Shown piece by piece: positions 3,191 to 31,061 of a stretch of DNA of 31,061 nt. Location of the stretch: the IMG/VR virus record IMGVR_UViG_3300029767_000022, positions 1 to 31,061 of that record; one strand, given 5' to 3'. Position numbers and translations under genes: made by a program. Numbering within the stretch: position 1 is the stretch's first letter; every line of letters starts with the position of its first letter. Source of the stretch: a virus. Below the pieces are notes generated by a model. The model did no database searches and had not been told where the DNA came from. It worked only from the letters and a program-made list of their open reading frames with translations.

Positions 3191-4099
3191 GTGTCCGATA
3201 CGAGTATAGCACAGAACTCGGGTTTTTCGATGCTGCCGAATTGGGCGGTGGATGATGACAGGTTGGGTGCCTACGATCTGCTGGTGTATATGGCGCTGAT
3301 ACGTCACGCCGACAACACCGGGCTCTGCTGGCCTAGTTTGGAGAGGCTGGCGAAGGTCGCGCGTTGCTCACAGCCCACGGTATCCAAGAGCCTCAACGTG
3401 CTGGAACAATTGGGGTACATTCGACGGGTCAAGTCCGATGGCAGGGCCAACCGGTATCACGTCTCGCTGTGGAAGCCCACCCCAAAACAGGGTTATGACC
3501 ATGCACCGACCCCAAAACCTGCTTTTGACCATGCACCGACCCCAAAACCTGCTTTTGACCCCCCAAAACCTGCTTTTGACCCACCCCAAAACGAGGTTTT
3601 GACTAACAATACCCAAGAGAATAAAACCCAAGAACAATACTCGCGCGACAAAGAAAAAATTACAGTCGCCTGCCATTCGGTGGATACCCTCAAGGCTCTT
3701 ATGGCGTTGTGGCCAAAGAAGTGCAGGGTGTCTAACGAATTCCTCATGTATTTCAATACGGCTTACGACGAGGTTGGTGCCGATGCGCTTATGAGAGCGG
3801 CGAAGCGTTTCGTGAAATCCTGCGAGGGTACGCCATTGCAGTATGTGCGGACTCTGCCCATGTGGCTGGCCGACTCGGTTAATTGGAGGGTCCAGAAGCC
3901 GGAGCAACGCAGCGAAGCCAAGTTAACGAATTGGATGGCCCATAGGCTTCCCGATTCCATGTCCGCCGACGTGGCGACCGTTCTGCGTGCGAGGCGTGTG
4001 TATTGGGGTGCCACCGGTGGTGTGGAGGCTTTGGAAATGGAATTCTTCCCAGACGAAGTTAAGAATGTGGGCAATTTGCAACAAGAACCAACAGTGTGA
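3191..4099 (+). CDS. Replication initiator-like protein, N-terminal winged-helix DNA-binding domain (302 aa, GTG start)
   Basis: The N-terminus (LPNWAVDDDRLGAYDLLVYMALIRHADNTGLCWPSLERLAKVARCSQPTVSKSLNVLEQLGYIRR) fits the helix-turn-helix replication/DnaD-type phage initiator pattern. A Pro-rich repeat linker DHAPTPKPAF x2 follows. RBS AAAGGTGG precedes GTG 3191. Confidence 0.75.
   Translation: MSDTSIAQNSGFSMLPNWAVDDDRLGAYDLLVYMALIRHADNTGLCWPSLERLAKVARCSQPTVSKSLNVLEQLGYIRRVKSDGRANRYHVSLWKPTPKQGYDHAPTPKPAFDHAPTPKPAFDPPKPAFDPPQNEVLTNNTQENKTQEQYSRDKEKITVACHSVDTLKALMALWPKKCRVSNEFLMYFNTAYDEVGADALMRAAKRFVKSCEGTPLQYVRTLPMWLADSVNWRVQKPEQRSEAKLTNWMAHRLPDSMSADVATVLRARRVYWGATGGVEALEMEFFPDEVKNVGNLQQEPTV
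3476..3592 (+). repeat. Iteron-like direct repeats inside the initiator gene (candidate origin of replication)
   Basis: There are two exact 30-bp units GACCATGCACCGACCCCAAAACCTGCTTTT (3497..3526, 3527..3556) and one 21-bp unit GACCCCCCAAAACCTGCTTTT (3557..3577). Further CCCCAAAAC cores lie at about 3478 and 3583. An AT-rich stretch follows at 3593..3663. Confidence 0.6.
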
Positions 4100-4118
4100 T
4101 ATAATATCTATATCACAC
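4076..4118 (+). promoter_or_regulatory. Extended -10 promoter overlapped by palindromic operator (copy 1)
   Basis: -35 TTGCAA (4076..4081), an 18-nt spacer, and TGATATAAT with -10 at 4100..4105. The palindrome is GTGTGATATA-atatc-TATATCACAC (4094..4118), with perfect 10-bp arms. Confidence 0.6.
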
Positions 4119-4551: not shown

Positions 4552-4624
4552 CCGCCCCTAGCTCACCGGATAGAGCGCCCAATCTCGAATTGGGAGGCAC
4601 CAAGTTCGACTCTTGGGGGGCGGT
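4552..4624 (+). tRNA. tRNA-Arg (anticodon UCG), 73 nt, CCA not encoded
   Basis: Cloverleaf folded by hand. Acceptor stem CCGCCCC/GGGGCGG, then T8 A9. D arm GCTC-ACCGGATA-GAGC. Anticodon arm CCCAA-TCTCGAA-TTGGG. Variable loop AGGCA. T arm CCAAG-TTCGACT-CTTGG. Discriminator T4624. All stems are Watson-Crick. Position 33 is C, not U. Confidence 0.85.
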
Positions 4625-4627
4625 CTG

Positions 4628-6034
4628 ATGGCAGGTTTCAACTCACCGTCCATACTGTTCCTCAACACTTGGGATAAGCCAGAACGTGATTGGAACGGGA
4701 ATCTGTTTAGGCAGGCACTCGCGTCAGGGTATACGCGATACGTCGAACTGTACGCCGGAGCCTTCGCCAACTGCATGGTCGCCGTGGAGAACGGTTGGAA
4801 ACCGGAGCAAATCGAGGCGTGCGACGTGTGGGCGTACACCGCAGCGCTCGGATATGCGTACAGCGGGACGCCTCTCACCGAAATGCGGGCAACCGTTGAC
4901 GGTTCACCAGTCCCGCTCTCAGGAAACGCAGCGGATGACGCGGCTACCGTAATCTTGGCGCAATACCGTATGCGTCTCAGCAAGCACGACGATATCGATT
5001 ACTACCGTGAACTTCTGTCTGATCTTGACATCAACGGTTCGGAACACGTCGGCCAGCTACGGGAGCGAATCGCGGCGAATATGGTCAAGTTGGGGGGGCT
5101 GAGATACGAGCCCACCGACCCGATGAAGTATGCGGAACGCGTTATGGACGACCCGCACGCCATCGTGTTCGCCAATCCCCCTACGTATCCGGGAGCTTAT
5201 GAAAAGTTCTTCGAGACCGGGGGGAGGTTCCAATGGGCGGAACCTGAATACAACGTGTTCAATGCTCCCGTTGATATTCCCAAGCTCTGTAAGCTGTTCG
5301 ATGGGCGTAAGGCGTTGCTGATCTGCCAGCAGCAGCAAACGCCCGGAAACGCCGCAACTGATAGCCCGGTCTACGCTAGGCGTCTGGGTTTGGACAGTGT
5401 GATTTACATGAATTCCAACCGTCCGAACGAGGTCAAACGTCTTGTCGGCGGGAACATGGTGACTGTGGCGGCGTCGAAATCGGCGGAGATACCGATACCG
5501 ATATTGCCCAGAGATCATCAGATTACCGAACGTTCCGAAATCAAGGTCGTACCGTTACGTGATAGTACGGTACAAGACTCGTATCTGCAAGTGATGCGGC
5601 ATAGGATATCGGGAAACGTGAGCCCGATGTGTGTTCTCGTACTAATCGACGGTTACGTTGCCGGGATCATCGGATATGGTTTGCCAAATCCCATGTACAC
5701 GATTCGCTACGCGGTATTGCGTCAAGCATTCGGGGTATCCCACAAACGGTATCGGCTTACGAAGCTGGTCACGATGATAGCGTTACGTCGTTCCACGTTC
5801 CAGCTCTGCGCTAAGCCCAAGACGCAGATACTCGTCGATGCGTGCGATGGGCTGGCAACCGTTGAGTACACGCGATATCCCGAATCCAAGGGACTTCGCG
5901 GCCTGATGAAACTGGACAGACGTGACCGTAAGAACGGACAGTATCAATTGCAGTATAAGAGCGATTGGCACGAAGAGATCGGCTTAAGGAACATTCTCGG
6001 ACAGTTCCTAGCCAAAGAGAACAGGAGGAGATAA
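4628..6034 (+). CDS. Two-domain protein: N-terminal Dam-family (D12-class) adenine-methyltransferase-like domain with atypical NPPTY motif, plus about 170-aa C-terminal domain of unknown function (468 aa)
   Basis: Three landmarks align with E. coli Dam at nearly the same residue numbers: YVELYAGAFA (aa 38-47; Dam LVEPFVGAGS), IVFANPPTYPG (aa 179-189; Dam VVYCDPPYAPL), and ALLICQQQ (aa 229-236; Dam PVLISNHD). The start is set at ATG 4628 because the track start lies inside the tRNA. The C-terminal part (…CVLVLIDGYVAGIIGYG…RLTKLVTMIALRR…) is unassigned. Confidence 0.7.
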   Translation: MAGFNSPSILFLNTWDKPERDWNGNLFRQALASGYTRYVELYAGAFANCMVAVENGWKPEQIEACDVWAYTAALGYAYSGTPLTEMRATVDGSPVPLSGNAADDAATVILAQYRMRLSKHDDIDYYRELLSDLDINGSEHVGQLRERIAANMVKLGGLRYEPTDPMKYAERVMDDPHAIVFANPPTYPGAYEKFFETGGRFQWAEPEYNVFNAPVDIPKLCKLFDGRKALLICQQQQTPGNAATDSPVYARRLGLDSVIYMNSNRPNEVKRLVGGNMVTVAASKSAEIPIPILPRDHQITERSEIKVVPLRDSTVQDSYLQVMRHRISGNVSPMCVLVLIDGYVAGIIGYGLPNPMYTIRYAVLRQAFGVSHKRYRLTKLVTMIALRRSTFQLCAKPKTQILVDACDGLATVEYTRYPESKGLRGLMKLDRRDRKNGQYQLQYKSDWHEEIGLRNILGQFLAKENRRR

Positions 6035-6744
6035 TGGCCGATGTCGACACGTCGCAAGAAATGACCATAGCCGACGGTTTGGTAATCAAGTGGGTTGCCG
6101 TGGTCGATCTCAAGGAACAAGACCTGAACGCGCAGGTCATGGAACCACGTAAGTTCGACGCGCTGACCCAGAACATCAAGCTACGAGGGATGTTGGAGTC
6201 ATTGCCGTACTGTTCGCAACCGAACGGAGAAGGGCCGATAAGTATTGTTTCCGGCCATCATCGTACGAGAGCCGCCGCCCGCGCCGGTATCCAACGTATC
6301 CCGGTTATCGTGGACACGAAGCCTATGACACGTTCCACCATAACGGCGAAGCAGATAGCCGCCAACGAACTCACCGGCCACGCCGACGAGAAACTGTTGG
6401 CGCAGCTGGTCACTCAGATGGACAACGTAGACGACTTGTTGCTCAGCGGACTCGATCAGGACAGCCTACCGCACGTCGAACCGCAGCAAGTCAACCTGAA
6501 CGGTTTGAATGTGAAGTACGAGTATAAGGACGTGGAGTTTTTGTTTCTGCCCCGCGAATACGAAGAACTTGAACAGTTCGTGGATGATTGCAACTCGGAT
6601 ATGCTCGGGTTGGTGCCTATGGAATTGTACGACGAGTTCGTGCATCAGGTGACATCGTTCGCTTCACGTAACGGGATCAGGAATATGGCTGCTGCGGTAT
6701 CCAAGATCATCGATATAGCGAGGAAAGACGCCGAGGAAGAGTGA
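6034..6744 (+). CDS. ParB/Srx-like nuclease-domain protein (236 aa)
   Basis: PISIVSGHHRTRAAARAGIQRIPVIV is the ParB N-terminal (ParBc) GxxR box. ATG 6034 is preceded by AGGAGGAG and overlaps the upstream stop (TAATG 6032..6036). Confidence 0.85.
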   Translation: MADVDTSQEMTIADGLVIKWVAVVDLKEQDLNAQVMEPRKFDALTQNIKLRGMLESLPYCSQPNGEGPISIVSGHHRTRAAARAGIQRIPVIVDTKPMTRSTITAKQIAANELTGHADEKLLAQLVTQMDNVDDLLLSGLDQDSLPHVEPQQVNLNGLNVKYEYKDVEFLFLPREYEELEQFVDDCNSDMLGLVPMELYDEFVHQVTSFASRNGIRNMAAAVSKIIDIARKDAEEE

Positions 6745-6749
6745 TTACA

Positions 6750-6778
6750 GGCCGGGCGAGTCCCGGCCTTTTTGTTTG
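6750..6778 (+). terminator. Rho-independent terminator
   Basis: GGCCGGG-cgagt-CCCGGCC followed by TTTTTGTTT, starting 6 nt after the ParB-like stop. Confidence 0.85.
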
Positions 6779-6814
6779 CATCATAAGACACAATGTGATA
6801 TAATAAATATATCA
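6776..6814 (+). promoter_or_regulatory. Extended -10 promoter overlapped by palindromic operator (copy 2)
   Basis: -35 TTGCAT (6776..6781), a 17-nt spacer, and TGATATAAT with -10 at 6799..6804. The palindrome is TGATATA-ataaa-TATATCA (6796..6814). Confidence 0.6.
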
Positions 6815-6828
6815 AGCCAATAGGCTTG
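6813..6828 (+). promoter_or_regulatory. 5-prime-proximal mRNA stem-loop
   Basis: CAAGCC-aata-GGCTTG begins at about +2 of the predicted transcript from the 6776 promoter. Confidence 0.35.
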
Positions 6829-7702: not shown

Positions 7703-7784
7703 CGTCCTACTAGGGGCGCTGGGACATGTCTATACGTGTCGCTGATTGCCTAATCCCACAACATGTGATATACTTTATATATCA
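7703..7784 (+). repeat. About 82-bp duplicated intergenic promoter block, copy 1 (partner 8761..8841)
   Basis: CGTCCTACTAGGGGCGCTGGGACATGTCTATACGTGTCGCTGATTGCCTAATCCCACAACATGTGATATACTTTATATATCA compared with CGTCCTACTAGGGCGCTGGAACCTGTCCCTGCGTGTCGCTGATTGCCTAATCCCACCACATGTGATATATTATATATATCA. The central 24 nt CGTGTCGCTGATTGCCTAATCCCA are identical. Confidence 0.9.
7746..7784 (+). promoter_or_regulatory. Extended -10 promoter overlapped by palindromic operator (copy 3)
   Basis: -35 TTGCCT (7746..7751), a 17-nt spacer, and TGATATACT with -10 at 7769..7774. The palindrome is TGATATA-cttta-TATATCA (7766..7784). Confidence 0.6.
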
Positions 7785-7810
7785 TCACATTATCAGAAAG
7801 GAGCACTGAG

Positions 7811-8760: not shown

Positions 8761-8841
8761 CGTCCTACTAGGGCGCTGGAACCTGTCCCTGCGTGTCGCT
8801 GATTGCCTAATCCCACCACATGTGATATATTATATATATCA
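8761..8841 (+). repeat. About 82-bp duplicated intergenic promoter block, copy 2 (partner 7703..7784)
   Basis: See copy 1. An extra TGATATA half-site lies at 8853..8859. Confidence 0.9.
8803..8841 (+). promoter_or_regulatory. Extended -10 promoter overlapped by palindromic operator (copy 4)
   Basis: -35 TTGCCT (8803..8808), a 17-nt spacer, and TGATATATT with -10 at 8826..8831. The palindrome is TGATATA-ttata-TATATCA (8823..8841). Confidence 0.6.
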
Positions 8842-8924
8842 GGCATCGGGCTTGATATATGACCTAAGGAGTTGAACACAAACCATTATCAGTAATCGCA
8901 TTCTATATTCAGCATGAAAGACTT

Positions 8925-10891: not shown

Positions 10892-11169
10892 TGTTCAACA
10901 AACAACAGGTTCATGTGCTGTTGATTCTTTGGATGGCTAAGCGACCGCTTACCCACGAGGAAATCGAACGTATGGCGGTATTAGCGAAGTATGACGATAC
11001 TCCGCAGGGATTGAGGACGCGCATGATCGAGCTTGAGCGTTCCGGTCATGTGTACCGTGTCGATCGGGATGGCGTGAACAGTCGGCACCGTCATTGCTGG
11101 CGGTTCGCGCTGACTGACGATGGGCGCGAAGCCATCAGTGAACTGTTCGGCAAAAACAGAAACATGTGA
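10891..11169 (+). CDS. Winged-helix (MarR/PadR-like) DNA-binding protein (92 aa)
   Basis: HVLLILWMAKRPLTHEEIERMAV...LRTRMIELERSGHVYRV fits a winged-helix recognition helix plus wing. ATAATG overlap with the upstream stop. Confidence 0.7.
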   Translation: MFNKQQVHVLLILWMAKRPLTHEEIERMAVLAKYDDTPQGLRTRMIELERSGHVYRVDRDGVNSRHRHCWRFALTDDGREAISELFGKNRNM

Positions 11170-11187
11170 TATAATCTATATATCACA
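11146..11187 (+). promoter_or_regulatory. Extended -10 promoter overlapped by palindromic operator (copy 5)
   Basis: TGATATAAT with -10 at 11170..11175. The -35 is weak (TTCGGC, 11146..11151, 18-nt spacer). The palindrome is TGTGATATA-atcta-TATATCACA (11165..11187), with perfect 9-bp arms. Confidence 0.5.
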
Positions 11188-11206
11188 TATCATAGGGAGG
11201 TGAAAC

Positions 11207-13106: not shown

Positions 13107-14264
13107 TTACTTGATGCGGATTGTCTGGCCCGCGTAGATCACGTCAGGGTTGGCGATACCGTTCAACGCCACCAGATTGGAGACACTGGTACCGTACTGG
13201 GCGGCGATACCACTCAATGTGTCACCGGGCTGGATAGTGTACGTCGTAACGGACGGTGACGGTGTAACGGACGGTGACGGTGCTCCGCCCGGCAGTTTCA
13301 GCACCTGACCCGGATAAATCAGATTAGGGTCGGCAATGCCGTTAAGCTGCTGGAGAGTCTGCCACGAAGTCCCAAACTTGGCGGCGATACCACTCAGCGT
13401 GTCCCCCGACTGCACCGTATACGTTCCACTACCGGACTGAACAGTATTGGCAGTACCATTGATATTCAACACCTGACCCGGATAAATCAGATTAGGGTCA
13501 GACAGATTATTAATCTGCGCCAACACCTGCCAGCTAGTCCCATACATCGACGCGATACCACTCAGAGTGTCACCAGAGCGCACGATGTACGTGCCAGACG
13601 CGGGAGTAGACGGAGCAGGAGCGGAAGGGGTCGGCACGTTGGTCACACTCGAATGACCCGCCTTATACGCGTTCCACGCATTCACATCACCATAGAACTT
13701 GTCAAGGTCAAGACTGCCTGAATATCCGGGCAGACGACCATTGCCCGAATACTGGCGGATAGCGCACGCATATGCGCCCTCGTTCCACGGCGTATCCTGA
13801 TACCCAGTAGCGTCCATATTCGCGTACTGGGCTACCCACAATCCACGATCACCAATGTTCTGCACGTCGTTAAGCATGGACGCTCCCACGTAGACGATAG
13901 GCTGGGAGCCTGTACGCTCGTACACGCGGTCACAGAACGACCTAATCCACTGCTGAGCAGACGCGCCAGACCCGACCAGTCCGTTACCCTGTTGCTCCCA
14001 GTCCAAGCACCATACGACCTTGCCGACCCAATTCGCGCAATTGTTCACAAAGTAGTCAGCCTCGGAAACGGCGTTACCGCCGTTAGCGTAATGGTATACG
14101 CCCACACACTTTCCCAGACTCAACGCCTGTTCCACCTGCCGAGCGCAATCCGCTGAAACATACCAGCATCCCTCTGTTGCCTTACTGATGACGAAATCAC
14201 ACGGTACAGCAGACAGGTCTATACCAGCCTGCCAATTACTAATGTCGATACCGTTCAAAGCCAT
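13107..14264 (-). CDS. Endolysin: GH25 muramidase domain plus three LysM repeats (385 aa)
   Basis: [29 protein letters not shown]...GVYHYANG is the GH25 signature. Three LysM modules follow ([20 protein letters not shown]..., [20 protein letters not shown]..., [20 protein letters not shown]...). The start is set at ATG 14264 with GGAGGAG 6 nt upstream. The 42-codon extension of the track ORF overlaps another small ORF. Confidence 0.92.
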
Positions 14265-14275
14265 CGAAACTCCTC

Positions 14276-14407
14276 CTATAGGCTGATCGTGTAGAAGAAC
14301 AGCCACGCCATGCATAAAACGGCGTAGGCCGTTATCAGAACGTGGACTATCAACGAGACGACAGAGAACGACATGATAATGATCATGCACCGTTTGAAAC
14401 GTCTCAT
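14276..14407 (-). CDS. Small hydrophobic protein (43 aa) overlapping the endolysin RBS; possible second holin/antiholin-type lysis factor
   Basis: Below the track cutoff. Hand translation: [43 protein letters not shown]. Its TAG stop (14278..14276) lies inside the endolysin Shine-Dalgarno region. Confidence 0.5.
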
Positions 14408-14451
14408 AGGATCACTTTAACATCAAAAACGAATCGATATTATTATCACCG

Positions 14452-14495
14452 ATAATGCCCATTATGCTAGAAACGGTGGAATTTGGAAACAGAAG
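14452..14495. repeat. Diverged direct repeat, copy A (partner 15315..15358); on the minus strand it contains a promoter-like TTTCCA-N17-CATAAT
   Basis: ATAATGCCCATTATGCTAGAAACGGTGGAATTTGGAAACAGAAG compared with ATAATGCCCCTTATGTCAGGAACGGTGGCGTGTGGAAGCTGAAG gives 34/44 identical by hand. Weaker, codon-phased similarity continues for about 50 nt. The minus-strand -10 is at 14466..14461 and the -35 at 14489..14484. Confidence 0.7.
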
Positions 14496-14501
14496 AACGT
14501 T

Positions 14502-14927
14502 GTGATCGACCCATACGCTGCAATGACTTTCAGTAGATCAGACGGACAATTGCAGGTAAACAACGGCATAACGCTAATGCGTATGACGTTTACGCATAAC
14601 GACTTCGACAGCGCATCTATCGTGAACGATAGTAAAGGAGCGAACGTAACTAACCTACCCGTAGGCGATTACTCCGTCTCCCTTACACTGCCAATGTCGA
14701 GCAACACCGGATGACTGAACCTCAATATCGGTGGCAGCAGTGGAATAACGAATTTAGGCCCGACTGTAAGCGAACAATTAACGGAAGGAGACGGGTTTAC
14801 CCGATTGAATTTGGCCACGATGCTGAGAGTAACTCAGACGAACACGAAGATACGGGTTTTCACAAACAATAACGTTTCCGATACCATGCGTGAAAAAGGA
14901 GCCAAGTTCATAACACGGCTCGGCTAG
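14502..14927 (+). pseudogene. Opposite-strand ORF inside the late arm, interrupted by one in-frame TGA (14712..14714): either a decaying moron gene or a read-through gene (70-aa and 141-aa products)
   Basis: Track ORF 14502..14714 (GTG start) continues in the same frame after the TGA to TAG 14925..14927, checked codon by codon: ...SSNTG*LNLNIGGSSGITNLGPTVSEQLTEGDGFTRLNLATMLRVTQTNTKIRVFTNNNVSDTMREKGAKFITRLG. No minus-strand ORF of 60 aa or more lies between 14391 and 14907. Hand-counted GC is 39-44% over 14401..14640. Confidence 0.5.
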
Positions 14928-15292
14928 TCATTATCTCCGGCCAGTTCCTCAAGCGATGCAATACGGTCGCGTAGATTATCAGGCAACGACGGTTTAGGAT
15001 AACCCTCCAAAAATTCAGGATCGATAATCTCGCAGACCTTCGACACCCAGTGACCCAACGCACGAATGTATCCCGTCTCCAAGTCGATGGTGTATTGCAA
15101 CTCATCACGATGCTTTATTAGCGCGTTTATCTTCTGGTCTTGCGCGTCGATCTGCCGTTTCATATCCCCCTGCGCGGAAACTAGGTCTTGATACGCGCTG
15201 GTCAGGTCCGACCGTCGGTTGGCTAGCCATGTTATGAGTCCTCCGAGTGCTACGCCGCCTACGCCGATGATCGCCGTGAAAATATCAATCAT
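14924..15292 (-). CDS. Membrane-anchored coiled-coil protein (122 aa), lysis-associated candidate (XhlA-like architecture)
   Basis: The N-terminal TM segment is IFTAIIGVGGVALGGLITWLA. A heptad-like region SAYQDLVSAQGDMKRQIDAQDQKINALIKHRDELQ follows. The stop overlaps the convergent plus-strand ORF in a CTAG tetranucleotide (14924..14927). Confidence 0.75.
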   Translation of the reverse strand: MIDIFTAIIGVGGVALGGLITWLANRRSDLTSAYQDLVSAQGDMKRQIDAQDQKINALIKHRDELQYTIDLETGYIRALGHWVSKVCEIIDPEFLEGYPKPSLPDNLRDRIASLEELAGDND

Positions 15293-15314
15293 AATCGCAT
15301 CTTACACCAATACA

Positions 15315-15358
15315 ATAATGCCCCTTATGTCAGGAACGGTGGCGTGTGGAAGCTGAAG
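15315..15358. repeat. Diverged direct repeat, copy B (partner 14452..14495); minus strand reads CTTCCA-N17-CATAAG
   Basis: See copy A. The minus-strand -10 is at 15329..15324 and the -35 at 15352..15347, about 25 nt upstream of ATG 15292. Confidence 0.7.
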
Positions 15359-15466
15359 CGTAAGACGATTACGTTCGGCAGTGATCAACACGTCTGGACA
15401 GATTTACATAATGTATGGTTCCGAAAACACGTTGCAGAGCGGTCGCATCACCGTTTGCTGGGAGTA

Positions 15467-16366
15467 TTAGGCCCCATACTTGATCGGATAGATAATGTTT
15501 GCCGTCAAGGAAATCGAATTGCCGTAGCCGTTGAACGAAATCAGAAGCTTCTTCGAATCAACAAGGCAATAACCGGAAGAAACGACAGTCGTGCCCACGT
15601 GGCACGTTAAGGTGCCGTAAGTCATGACAGAAGACGCCGGAGGTTCGTAGCCTTTCACTTCTTGGTTGACGAAAGAACCAGTGGAACCTTGATATGTCTT
15701 ATTTGCGTTAATCGTGCAAAACCCATTTCTAACGCACTCGGTTATGGACCATCCGTCGTGGGAACTGGTTTTCGGCGTATCGGAAACCCACGCATTACCT
15801 TTCCTGACATAAGGGACATTATCGGCAATAGTCACAGCCTCCTGCCCGTCCACCGCGTCAATGGTGTTAAGCTGGGTAAGATCACGCGCCATCAGGATAG
15901 CGTTATTACGAATCATCGGAGCCACATCAGACGCGACACCGGCATTGACCTTGGCAATCACAAGACCATTGATATTCGAGTCAGGCGTACCATCCGTGAA
16001 CACCTCGATCTTGCCGCGCGGAGTCGTACCGCGCGACTGAGACGGGTCTTCCACAGTGACCGCGATCTTGTAAGCGTTGGTGGAGTCCGCGAGTTGCACC
16101 GTTGTATTGGTGGTGATGGCGTAGGTGTACGCGCCGATGCCATTCCACGGGCTGATGGTGCCGCAATGAGCCTTGACCGTCACAGTCAGACCGCTCACAG
16201 TGACCAGAGGACTCGGAGAACCGTAACGAATACCCGACAACCCGTCGAACGCGCTACCATCGGACGGCAGCAACAGAGGATTGATGGCGTGCCTGTAATC
16301 GTCCGCCGTGTACTCCGGGGAACCGTTCTTCGCGGTAAGCGGGTGCATGATGATAGCCATAATCAT
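15467..16366 (-). CDS. Tail fibre / receptor-binding protein candidate (299 aa)
   Basis: It is the last virion-structure ORF and has a Thr/Ser/Gly/Asn/Val-rich beta-type composition. ATGA overlap with the upstream fibre gene. ATG 16360, 6 nt after GGAGGA, is an equally good start. The function call rests on position and composition only. Confidence 0.65.
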   Translation of the reverse strand: MIMAIIMHPLTAKNGSPEYTADDYRHAINPLLLPSDGSAFDGLSGIRYGSPSPLVTVSGLTVTVKAHCGTISPWNGIGAYTYAITTNTTVQLADSTNAYKIAVTVEDPSQSRGTTPRGKIEVFTDGTPDSNINGLVIAKVNAGVASDVAPMIRNNAILMARDLTQLNTIDAVDGQEAVTIADNVPYVRKGNAWVSDTPKTSSHDGWSITECVRNGFCTINANKTYQGSTGSFVNQEVKGYEPPASSVMTYGTLTCHVGTTVVSSGYCLVDSKKLLISFNGYGNSISLTANIIYPIKYGA

Positions 16367-23630: not shown

Positions 23631-24010
23631 ATGCTGTCCCTGCCATACGGGTTCCCGTACACGGTGATGAACCGGGTTTCTCCCATGTCCATGTCATCGC
23701 CGCGACTGGCTTGCGTGACTTGGTACACTCTGCCATCGGACAATTTCACCATGAGATCGGGCCATAGTTCCATGTTTTCCCGCAAGTCCTCGGGAACCGT
23801 GTCCGTTTGAATATGGAAGCGTCGGGTGCTGATACGCGAACCGTATTCGGTCGGCTGATCGGACTGTGTTGAATGCTTCACAATCACCTGCAAGTCGGCC
23901 AGTTGTTCGTTAGGCAGACCGGGAGCCGTATACCGCCAAAGCGTAGCCGTCTGGACTTGGTTAGGGAACAGTCGGAACGGGTCACAGAGCGTTGCCATAA
24001 GCGTAGTCAC
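23627..24010 (-). CDS. Head closure / head-tail adaptor candidate (127 aa)
   Basis: Position in the head-tail joining block, with ATGA coupling to the next gene. Called by synteny only. Confidence 0.5.
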   Translation of the reverse strand: MTTLMATLCDPFRLFPNQVQTATLWRYTAPGLPNEQLADLQVIVKHSTQSDQPTEYGSRISTRRFHIQTDTVPEDLRENMELWPDLMVKLSDGRVYQVTQASRGDDMDMGETRFITVYGNPYGRDSI

Positions 24011-24737: not shown

Positions 24738-25133
24738 TCAGACGGACGCCATCAGACCTGCGTCGATCAGAGCTTTCACCACTTCGGCAACAGAACCGGT
24801 CGAAGGGTTAACGTGAGCGGCCTTAGTGATCGGACCAGCTGGGCCAGCCGGACCAGCTGGGCCAGCCGGACCCTGCGGGCCAGCCGGACCAGCTGGGCCA
24901 GCCGGACCCTGCGGGCCACGCGCACCAGCCGGACCAGCTGGGCCAGCCGGACCAGCTGGGCCAGCCGGACCCTGCGGGCCAGCCGGACCAGCTGGGCCAG
25001 CCGGACCCTGCGGGCCCGTCAAAGACACTGGTTTGCCGGACTTGTCCACAACGTTGATGACCTTAATCGTGTTCAGGTTGTCTTCTGGCAGCGCTTTGCT
25101 GTCGACTCGTACGTACATTTCAGCGTTCATCAT
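24738..25133 (-). CDS. Collagen-like (Gly-X-Y) repeat protein, translationally coupled to the capsid gene (131 aa)
   Basis: There are 21 uninterrupted G-X-Y triplets ([12 protein letters not shown], aa 40-102) between a 39-aa N-terminal and a 29-aa C-terminal non-repeat region. ATGA overlap with the capsid-fusion stop at 25130..25133. Confidence 0.9.
24828..25016. repeat. Tandem 9-bp-periodic repeat encoding the Gly-Pro-Ala/Gln triplets
   Basis: Units GGACCAGCTGGGCCAGCCGGACCCTGCGGGCCAGCC... repeat with higher-order periodicity. The repeats are in-frame coding, not spacer-separated. Confidence 0.9.
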
Positions 25134-30672: not shown

Positions 30673-31043
30673 TTCACCGTGACGTTGATCGTAGGCGGCT
30701 CGTACATCTGCACCGTCTGGTCAACCTGCTGTCGGGGCATGCCCTCGGTACGGTTGGCAATGTCCTGATAGGCGCGGAATGCTTTCTCACCGTCTTTCTT
30801 TGATTCAAGGACACGACGTAGGGCGATCTGTTCGGCTTGGGTCAGTTCGTCCATACGCTGCACCCATTCCGCTAGTTCCTCGTTCGTGAGTTCAAGGAAT
30901 TGCTGGAGGTTGTATTTCACGCTGCCGCGTTTTGTCCATTTGCGACTGCGGTCTTGTGGGCGTTCTTGGAAGCCGCCTTTACCGGTTGGGTTGTTCACGC
31001 CTCCGGTTATTCGTCCGTGGGCGTCTCTGGTTACGTTGCTCAT
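30669..31043 (-). CDS. terS: Terminase small subunit candidate (124 aa)
   Basis: It lies immediately upstream of and overlaps terL. It has a basic N-terminus and a helical middle (NLQQFLELTNEELAEWVQRMDELTQAEQIALRRVLE). Called by position and composition. Confidence 0.7.
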   Translation of the reverse strand: MSNVTRDAHGRITGGVNNPTGKGGFQERPQDRSRKWTKRGSVKYNLQQFLELTNEELAEWVQRMDELTQAEQIALRRVLESKKDGEKAFRAYQDIANRTEGMPRQQVDQTVQMYEPPTINVTVK

Positions 31044-31061
31044 AAGGGGTATTTTATGCTT
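30953..31061. repeat. Terminal direct repeat, right copy (identical to 1..109)
   Basis: Same comparison as the left copy: CTTGTGGGCGTTCTTGGAAG...GGGGTATTTTATGCTT at both ends. Confidence 0.95.

Follow-up and report, generated by a model that had tools for sequence, protein, structure and literature searches.

The window analysed here is the complete 31,061-nucleotide (nt) IMG/VR virus record IMGVR_UViG_3300029767_000022, and our subject is an open reading frame (ORF) on its plus strand that has no start codon at its 5′ end, is broken by one in-frame TGA and lies between the lysis genes and the gene for the tail fibre or receptor-binding protein (RBP). The window carries a perfect 109-nt direct terminal repeat (1–109 = 30953–31061) and is a complete, circularly permuted genome of ~30,950 bp. 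Translation of 14400–14927 on the plus strand (RLIGSL*HQKRIDIIITDNAHYARNGGIWKQKNVV...SSNTG*LNLNIGG...FITRLG*) confirms what a sequence-only reading of this DNA had reported, namely that the frame is open from 14421 to the TAG at 14925–14927 with the TGA at 14712–14714 as its single break. A TAA (14418–14420) directly precedes the open frame, GTG 14502 is the earliest ATG, GTG or TTG after it, and a further ATG lies upstream of the TAA in the same frame, at 14373. The terminal TAG and the stop codon of the convergent gene, which encodes 122 amino acids (aa), overlap in the sequence CTAG, as also reported, and the minus strand of the gap holds small ORFs only (35 and 49 aa).

The features of the locus are listed below. 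Relatives are labelled L001 etc., the cassettes of the RBP gene cas1, cas2 and cas4, and the constant part of the RBP is Rc.

14373..14448, plus strand: 'leader', fixed DNA outside the invertible segment, beside the lysis genes (survey of ~80 loci)
14417..14446, plus strand: promoter-like site TTAACA-18-TATTAT (10/12 matches)
14449..14481, plus strand: crossover site A, with core GATAATGCCCATTATG at 14451–14466; encodes DNAHYARNGGI(W), the junction motif
14482..14927, plus strand: cas1, read here as a silent, inactivated C-terminal receptor-binding cassette (in-frame Rc fusions in relatives)
14712..14714, plus strand: nonsense TGA, G to A at 14714 (a conserved Trp, TGG, in every intact homologue aligned)
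14924..15292, minus strand: 122-aa gene for a membrane-anchored coiled-coil protein (phrog_1397), inside the invertible segment
15313..15349, plus strand: crossover site B, between the RBP stop and the 122-aa gene, with core AATAATGCCCCTTATG at 15314–15329; arm of inverted repeat I1
15343..15470, plus strand: cas4 remnant, the third cassette (intact 99-aa copies in L001, L016, L023 and L048)
15467..15787, minus strand: cas2, the cassette now expressed as RBP C-terminus (same cassette silent on the other strand in L001)
15788..15824, minus strand: crossover site C, within the RBP gene, with core GATAATGTCCCTTATG at 15808–15823; encodes DNVPYVRKGNAW; arm of inverted repeat I1
15823..16366, minus strand: constant N-terminal part of the RBP, 181 aa (88–94% identical in ~100 loci)
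15467..16366, minus strand: whole tail-fibre/RBP gene (Rc + junction + cas2)

Read from the right, the order is Rc, site C, cas2, site B with the cas4 remnant, the 122-aa gene, the inverted cas1, site A and the leader; to the left of the leader lie a 43-aa membrane ORF and then a GH25-LysM endolysin gene. The RBP gene follows a Dit gene and a Peptidase_S74 fibre gene and precedes the lysis genes, a position consistent with a receptor-binding role. The guanine plus cytosine (GC) content of 14421–14927 is 45.8% and thus lower than the genome-wide 54.3%, as the sequence-only reading had it, but the difference is less extreme than its figures of 39–44% against ~57%; the expressed cassette cas2 is also low (47.7%). 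Of 36 confident genes in the window, 19 end in TGA, which is therefore a normal stop codon in this phage, as had been stated.

The cas1 frame and the tail-fibre gene

The frame had been taken for genuine protein-coding DNA, and more than 200 database proteins that match it over the whole ORF at E ≤ 0.01 (67–89% identity among the 120 listed) establish that it is. Most of these relatives are called as proteins of 180–192 aa and come from ~31-kb contigs. A comparison with relatives, which the earlier reading had recommended as a way to find an intact version, revealed where such versions lie. When 14373–14927 was compared by blastn with the first 20 related loci, the match was split in L009, L017, L019 and L020: the first ~100 nt match the other strand ~0.5–1.5 kb off, while nt 77–555 stand behind Rc. 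L009 has an uninterrupted 339-aa Rc-cas1 ORF (...EAVTIADNAPYVRNGG-MWKQKNVV...FITRLG), and in-frame Rc-cas1 fusions are found in at least eight loci (L008, L009, L017, L019, L020, L042, L056 and L063). The RBP gene of the window itself bears the junction motif DNVPYVRKGNAW at 15788–15822, in one arm of inverted repeat I1.

We surveyed ~100 loci (87 unique) that had been collected by the constant part of the RBP alone, hence without bias to any cassette. Every RBP in them consists of the constant 181 aa, the motif DNAHYVRNGGxW and one cassette class, and the 87 unique loci contain at least 11 unrelated C-terminal classes of 99–166 aa. The cas1 class (158 aa counted from the junction D) was seen 23 times, four times expressed behind Rc and 19 times silent, and further expressed copies occur in L008, L009, L017, L019 and L020. 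The silent copies are inverted and abut the fixed leader beside the lysis genes. Databases hold ~2000 relatives or clusters of the RBP as a whole.

Since cas1 stands in frame behind Rc in relatives, the missing start codon is what is expected of a cassette. The fusion to the tail fibre also accounts for the conserved sequence (DNAHYARNGGIW) upstream of the first start: it is the recombination junction common to cas1 and the tail-fibre gene. Our reading, to which we assign a probability of about 85%, is that the cas1 ORF is a promoter-less and start-less alternative 3′ cassette of the RBP gene, kept silent in an invertible segment and knocked out by a nonsense mutation.

Structure prediction points in the same direction. 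AlphaFold2, run on a shallow alignment, gives an all-beta model of cas1 with a mean predicted local distance difference test score (pLDDT) of 56.5, rising to ~70–79 over the C-terminal 90 residues, and with a disordered leader. The best Foldseek matches to this low-confidence model are jelly rolls of the TNF/C1q type (i.e. the BclA C-terminal domain, the Bdellovibrio Bd2734 fibre-tip domain and TNF-family ligands), and the baseplate tripod of Tuc2009 is a weaker match. The predicted fold would fit a trimeric receptor-binding head at the tip of a fibre, of which it is weak evidence; superinfection exclusion or host modulation, the functions suggested from the letters alone, found no support. 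Pfam and PHROG scans of the cas1 ORF yielded a sub-threshold Phage_tail_C_2 match alone (E = 0.058), and a profile search of PDB sequences with cas1 yielded no match.

Crossover sites and inversions between genomes

Exactly three copies of the core GATAATGYCCMTTATG are present in the window, against 0.05 expected by chance: those of sites A and B lie on the plus strand and that of site C on the minus strand. Conservation of the ~18-nt core CGATAATGyCCATTATGT reaches at least 90% over 113 unique copies, and the sequence is dyad-symmetric (ATAATG-yC-CATTAT). The same level holds for B-type relic sites, which are preceded by non-coding DNA and followed by no cassette. Every codon for Asp, Asn, His and Tyr in the core is T-ending, whereas the late genes use T-ending codons for these residues at 35, 29, 48 and 32%, respectively. 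That the core is constant at synonymous positions and at cassette-less relic sites indicates that the DNA sequence itself is constrained, as one would expect of a recombination site. At the leader-side sites the stretch GATATTATTAT...CCGAT is also at least 90% conserved.

Relatives differ by exact inversions at these core sites, as comparisons between different genomes, rather than within one population, show directly. L068 and L054 have two cassettes in common, along with the 122-aa gene; between the sites, their 1.5-kb segments align 1–1476 to 1510–1 at 89.8% identity, while their flanks are collinear at 95%. The B–C segments of L001 and L048 (592 nt) align 1–592 to 592–1 at 98.6%, and L009 and L007 share the same segment of cas1, the 122-aa gene and c5 with the flanks swapped. 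Sites B and C of the L001/L048 type are mismatched at only 3 of 41 positions, and L023 likewise has intact sites that match well. Three-site genomes occur in several permutations (e.g. L001, L048 and L087), which is the expected product of a multiple-inversion ('shufflon') system.

The 122-aa gene flips with the segment and is reversed relative to the RBP gene and the late operon in 11 of the 87 unique loci. Its product, the membrane-anchored coiled-coil protein of phrog_1397, has a weak match to Rz-like spanins. Because the flipped gene faces away from the late operon, the promoter-like site TTAACA-18-TATTAT in the leader, which is directed into the invertible segment, might transcribe it once the segment is turned. 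In L017 and L019 (3489–3571) a copy of the site is fused directly to the last eight codons of the 122-aa gene (DNAHYARNDGTWEELSGDNG*), and a full copy of the gene adjoins this fragment in the opposite orientation, a trace of rearrangement that does not fit a simple A × C or B × C inversion.

Mechanistically, recombination of site C with the oppositely oriented site A or B would invert the intervening DNA. The constant shaft would thereby acquire another receptor-binding head, fused in frame at DNAHYVRNGGxW, and host specificity would change. Such inversion may be a programmed and frequent switch, with the enzyme supplied in trans by the host or with the phage's own ERF/YqaJ/RusA recombination system acting in its place. 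The two site copies of a genome share identical runs of at most 6–39 nt, mostly below 20 nt; such short runs in divergent pairs make a poor substrate for homologous recombination and would point to a site-specific enzyme. The central dinucleotide agrees within a genome at 0.80 against 0.63 expected, a weak excess that is not decisive for concerted evolution of the sites.

A diversity-generating retroelement target was considered and rejected, since the region has no template/variable repeat pair, its sole repeat partners being the ~35-nt crossover sites, and Pfam scans gave no reverse transcriptase.

Decay of the stored cassettes and rival explanations

Of the two alternatives in the earlier reading, inactivation of the gene in this genome proved correct. 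At the position of the TGA the intact homologues aligned have Trp without exception, and DNA comparison of the 19 other unique cas1 copies gave TGG in each. Across the cas1 family the median ratio of non-synonymous to synonymous substitution rates (dN/dS) is 0.43, and it is 0.40 among silent copies. Silent cas1 is thus under purifying selection, which suggests that stored copies are used often enough over evolutionary time to stay functional. The window copy has a dN/dS of 0.9–1.0 against its nearest relatives and 13 private nucleotide changes against 1–5 in close relatives, nine of them non-synonymous and several at otherwise invariant residues. Six of these 13 substitutions, TGG to TGA included, are G to A on the plus strand.

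Decay is also seen elsewhere in the segment. Between sites A and C of the window 15 of 41 positions are mismatched, more than in any other of the 46 pairs examined. In the survey of 87 unique loci, cassettes shorter than their class length occur in silent positions only (87 aa in the window, 140 aa in L052 and L062, 55 aa in L051, 66 aa in L053, 67 aa in L080 and 23 aa in L105, plus several short relics). The cas4 remnant keeps its first 12 aa (WKLKRKTITFGS) and, in another frame, its last ~24 aa (SGQIYIMYGSENTLQSGRITVCWEY*), with ~140 nt deleted. From the TGA, the private changes, the diverged site A and the cas4 remnant, we conclude that expression in the window lineage is in effect locked to cas2, the spare cassettes being in decay. 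The window cas1, if flipped in, would give a truncated fibre.

Several observations weigh against the reading of cas1 as a stored cassette of a switching locus, or against parts of it: (i) Pfam and PHROG scans of the window ORFs of at least 100 aa outside the structural module brought up no gene for a serine or tyrosine recombinase; (ii) no near-identical genome pair differs in orientation alone, all such pairs sharing one architecture; (iii) short contigs do not end at crossover sites; (iv) site copies of the same genome are generally no more alike than copies of different genomes (median 11 vs 9 mismatches per 41 nt), which argues against frequent homologous exchange; (v) about one-third of the leader-attached cassettes have an open, ATG-initiated leader and may occasionally be translated on their own; (vi) the ratio of non-synonymous to synonymous private changes in the window (9:4) is not unusual beside that in the other copies (71:26; Fisher p = 0.75), so that 'relaxed selection' rests on the excess of changes and not on their ratio; and (vii) the structural model of cas1 is of low confidence. 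Frequent switching within a population is thus no more than a possibility, and the inversions could be rare evolutionary events.

The search for a recombinase was extended beyond these scans, which had matched a replication initiator, DUF488, a DAM-like/GNAT protein, a ParB-like protein, ERF, a YqaJ exonuclease, RusA, SSB and a helix-turn-helix (HTH) protein. A serine-recombinase motif search and tblastn with approximate Gin and XerD queries found no match in the window, and the neighbours of the locus are the endolysin gene, genes for small membrane proteins and the fibre gene. Among 185,579 genomes the 17-nt core gave ~120 single matches in unrelated taxa, about the estimated chance level, with no multi-site host locus and no candidate recombinase.

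The alternative that survives best accepts the cassettes but does without a switch: homologous recombination of co-infecting phages at the conserved junction would have shuffled them rarely over evolution, the silent cassettes being passive leftovers. We consider this a serious possibility, although not the one we favour. It would be in keeping with the missing recombinase gene and isogenic orientation pairs, with the presence of ERF, YqaJ, RusA and SSB in the phage, with the single cassette and no silent copy of about half of the genomes, and with the broken state of about one-quarter or more of the silent copies. It does not readily explain why the core is conserved even at synonymous positions and cassette-less relic sites, why it is dyad-symmetric, why the same cassette sets appear in all site permutations, or why silent cas1 is under purifying selection (dN/dS 0.40), and the mostly short identical runs of the site pairs would serve such exchange poorly. 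A further proposal is that the phage family may run a multi-cassette RBP shufflon without encoding a site-specific recombinase, the core being cut by a host invertase in trans or exchanged by ERF/YqaJ/RusA, and the leader promoter keeping the 122-aa gene expressed both ways; taken as a whole, it is tentative and rather doubtful.

As for the TGA, it is unlikely to be a sequencing or assembly error in an otherwise intact silent cassette. A single-base difference from the consensus might arise in this way, and the six G to A changes could hint at damage or error. However, a second, independently deposited assembly (L243, ENA ERZ28636093), which is 99.97% identical with two mismatches elsewhere in 6.9 kb, has the same TGA. 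The window cas1 also has eight other private amino-acid changes, several of them at residues that do not vary in other copies, and the adjacent cas4 has plainly suffered a deletion.

The sequence-only reading regarded the ORF as a horizontally acquired moron. As an independent opposite-strand accessory gene it would start at ATG 14373, encode ~184 aa and have been pseudogenised by the TAA at 14418 and the TGA at 14712. We consider this quite improbable. Many database proteins are indeed called as 180–192 aa from the leader ATG, and the TAA at 14418 aligns with a Tyr in homologues that start there. Across ~80 loci of the unbiased sample, however, the ATG is often absent (NTRITHRLKRL...), a stop lies at the same codon 16 (GSS*/GSL*) or the frame is shifted, as in the one-base-shifted form ...SYHRTNRYYYHR*. 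The leader is not a conserved ORF in relatives, and this variability indicates that the TAA is ordinary variation in DNA that is untranslated on the plus strand. Over its first 35 nt the leader coincides, on the opposite strand, with the 5′ start of the 43-aa minus-strand ORF (14276..14407), and elsewhere the same leader is joined to unrelated cassettes (139 aa in L009 and 189 aa in L028). The promoter-like site, which stands just upstream of site A as a gene of its own might require, lies downstream of ATG 14373. The low GC would suit a moron as well, but cas1 occurs in frame behind Rc in at least eight loci. It is syntenic across the family and so not newly acquired by this phage. In place of an own start and a conserved autonomous ORF, the marks of a moron, we find an unconserved leader and an interchangeable cassette fused to the RBP. 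The many database entries of 148–192 aa are accordingly gene-caller artefacts of silent cassettes; more than 200 such hypothetical proteins are silent fibre cassettes mis-called in this way.

Decoding of the TGA (leaky UGA-C termination, Trp or Sec insertion, or a suppressor) into short and long isoforms, proposed earlier as products of 70 and 141 aa, is very improbable: the TGA does coincide exactly with a Trp codon position and has C as its next base, but TGG to TGA is a single transition, the other unique cas1 copies are TGG in 19 of 19 cases and TGA in none, TGA terminates 19 of the 36 window genes, the sole tRNA is Arg-TCG, the cassette in its present position has no start codon or expression context and shows further signs of decay, and the 64 nt from the TGA, where a selenocysteine insertion sequence (SECIS)-like hairpin had been suggested, fold no better than shuffles (z = 0.00). 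Neither a conserved stop nor a structured downstream element, the two marks of recoding, is thus found, and Rfam gave no match in the window. A start-less and stop-interrupted ORF is thereby explained without recoding.

Known invertible systems, host and other genome features

The closest parallel to the window locus is the Rin shufflon of Bifidobacterium breve and Bifidobacterium longum prophages (Mavrich et al. 2018, PMC6109161). The two systems probably share the host group, and both combine a constant RBP N-terminus (Rc) with dissimilar C-terminal cassettes (Rv) of ~100–160 aa, invert at short repeats inside the RBP gene and upstream of each cassette, and place a site directly beyond the 3′ terminus of the expressed gene. 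In Rin loci a gene for a tyrosine invertase, rin, lies next to the cassettes, and recombination uses the 11-bp rix site TTCCCTAACCC (PMC6109161). By contrast, the window locus has no rin gene flanking its cassettes and no rix site, the sole match with one mismatch lying far off at 23958 and being at chance level. The window locus further departs from Rin in its site, a dyad-symmetric core of ~18 nt whose sequence also codes for a conserved peptide motif, and in the unrelated 122-aa gene carried within the invertible segment; no integrase is seen in the phage, and the 185,579 genomes yielded no prophage copy.

A second likeness is found in the tRNA-Met-integrated bifidoprophages 689b-1 and Bb423phi2, in which a ~500-bp inversion occurs without a flanking recombinase and for which an invertase in trans was proposed (PMC6109161). 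There, too, the inverted DNA comprises the 3′ end of a tail gene and a small gene. These prophages are temperate and have an 8-bp repeat (CAGGGTTA) and two alleles, whereas the window family has the ~18-nt core, up to three sites and at least 11 cassette classes.

More generally, the G segment of Mu (Gin), the C segment of P1 (Cin) and the Min system of p15B have a serine invertase gene beside the segment, 26-bp gix, cix or mix sites and a Fis-dependent enhancer. The window locus resembles them in that the constant 5′ part of the fibre gene lies outside the segment, the alternative 3′ parts are opposed inside it and the stored copy has no start or promoter; as in Min, three sites lead to several isomers. 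It differs from them in that no invertase was found beside it by the Pfam/PHROG scans or the motif and tblastn check, and in that one 122-aa gene is common to both orientations, whereas in Gin, Cin and Min each alternative cassette has its own chaperone gene (U/U′). The general features of invertible fibre cassettes are all present: (i) a constant 5′ part with opposed, start-less 3′ cassettes; (ii) short, conserved and inverted border sites (three cores in the window, 0.05 expected); and (iii) both orientations, with breakpoints exactly at the sites in between-genome comparisons. Judged from sequence, the system appears to be a variant of the invertible RBP cassettes known from Mu G/Gin, Min and Rin, with its own core, cassettes and co-inverting gene.

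The phage is a member of a human-gut family of very high abundance, and the isolates closest to it are the bee-gut Bifidobacterium phages BlindBasel1 and BlindUri1 (TerL 62% identical), to which only TerL and the RBP N-terminus link it in phage-database searches and which have a single-cassette rather than a multi-cassette layout. Neither megablast nor tblastn matched the region to any of 50,697 phage records, and a cas1 profile found no prophage copy in the 185,579 genomes. The family is probably virulent, with Bifidobacterium as its probable host. A literature search returned no paper describing its cassette locus.

Several other features of the genome were observed. Within the replication-initiator gene 3191..4099 (HTH_36; PHROG replication initiation), four to five direct repeats of 21–30 nt (CCCCAAAACCTGCTTTTGACC) at 3476–3609 look like the iterons of a replication origin. 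Five elements of ~45 nt on the plus strand (4074–4118, 6773–6817, 7743–7787, 8800–8844 and 11144–11188) stand ahead of early genes; they have the form TTGC...N...TGTGATATAAT, end in TGTGATATAAT-like extended −10 boxes and are probably an early promoter family, possibly with an operator. A single tRNA-Arg(TCG) is located between early genes at 4552–4625, and a fused DAM-like/GNAT-like protein (4613..6034) is encoded beside a protein with a ParB N-domain (5965..6744). In the late region, a small structural gene (24738..25133, minus strand) contains at least 18 9-nt repeats at 24795–25052 that encode collagen-like G-X-Y (GPAGPAGPQ...). The 43-aa ORF (14276–14407, minus strand) is hydrophobic and immediately upstream of the endolysin gene (13107–14264, minus strand; GH25 + 3×LysM), whose start is most likely ATG 14264, after a GGAGGAG Shine-Dalgarno sequence, and not GTG 14390 of the long ORF.

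In brief, this phage family has a cassette-switching locus with at least 11 receptor-binding heads and a defined crossover core, and no recombinase was found in cis. The broken cas1 and the cas4 remnant show the fate of stored cassettes once a lineage stops flipping. If switching is programmed, the locus would offer a tractable model for host-range bet-hedging in phages of gut Actinobacteria and for trans-acting (host) invertases; if it is not, the locus would illustrate cleanly how RBP modules are exchanged at a conserved junction.

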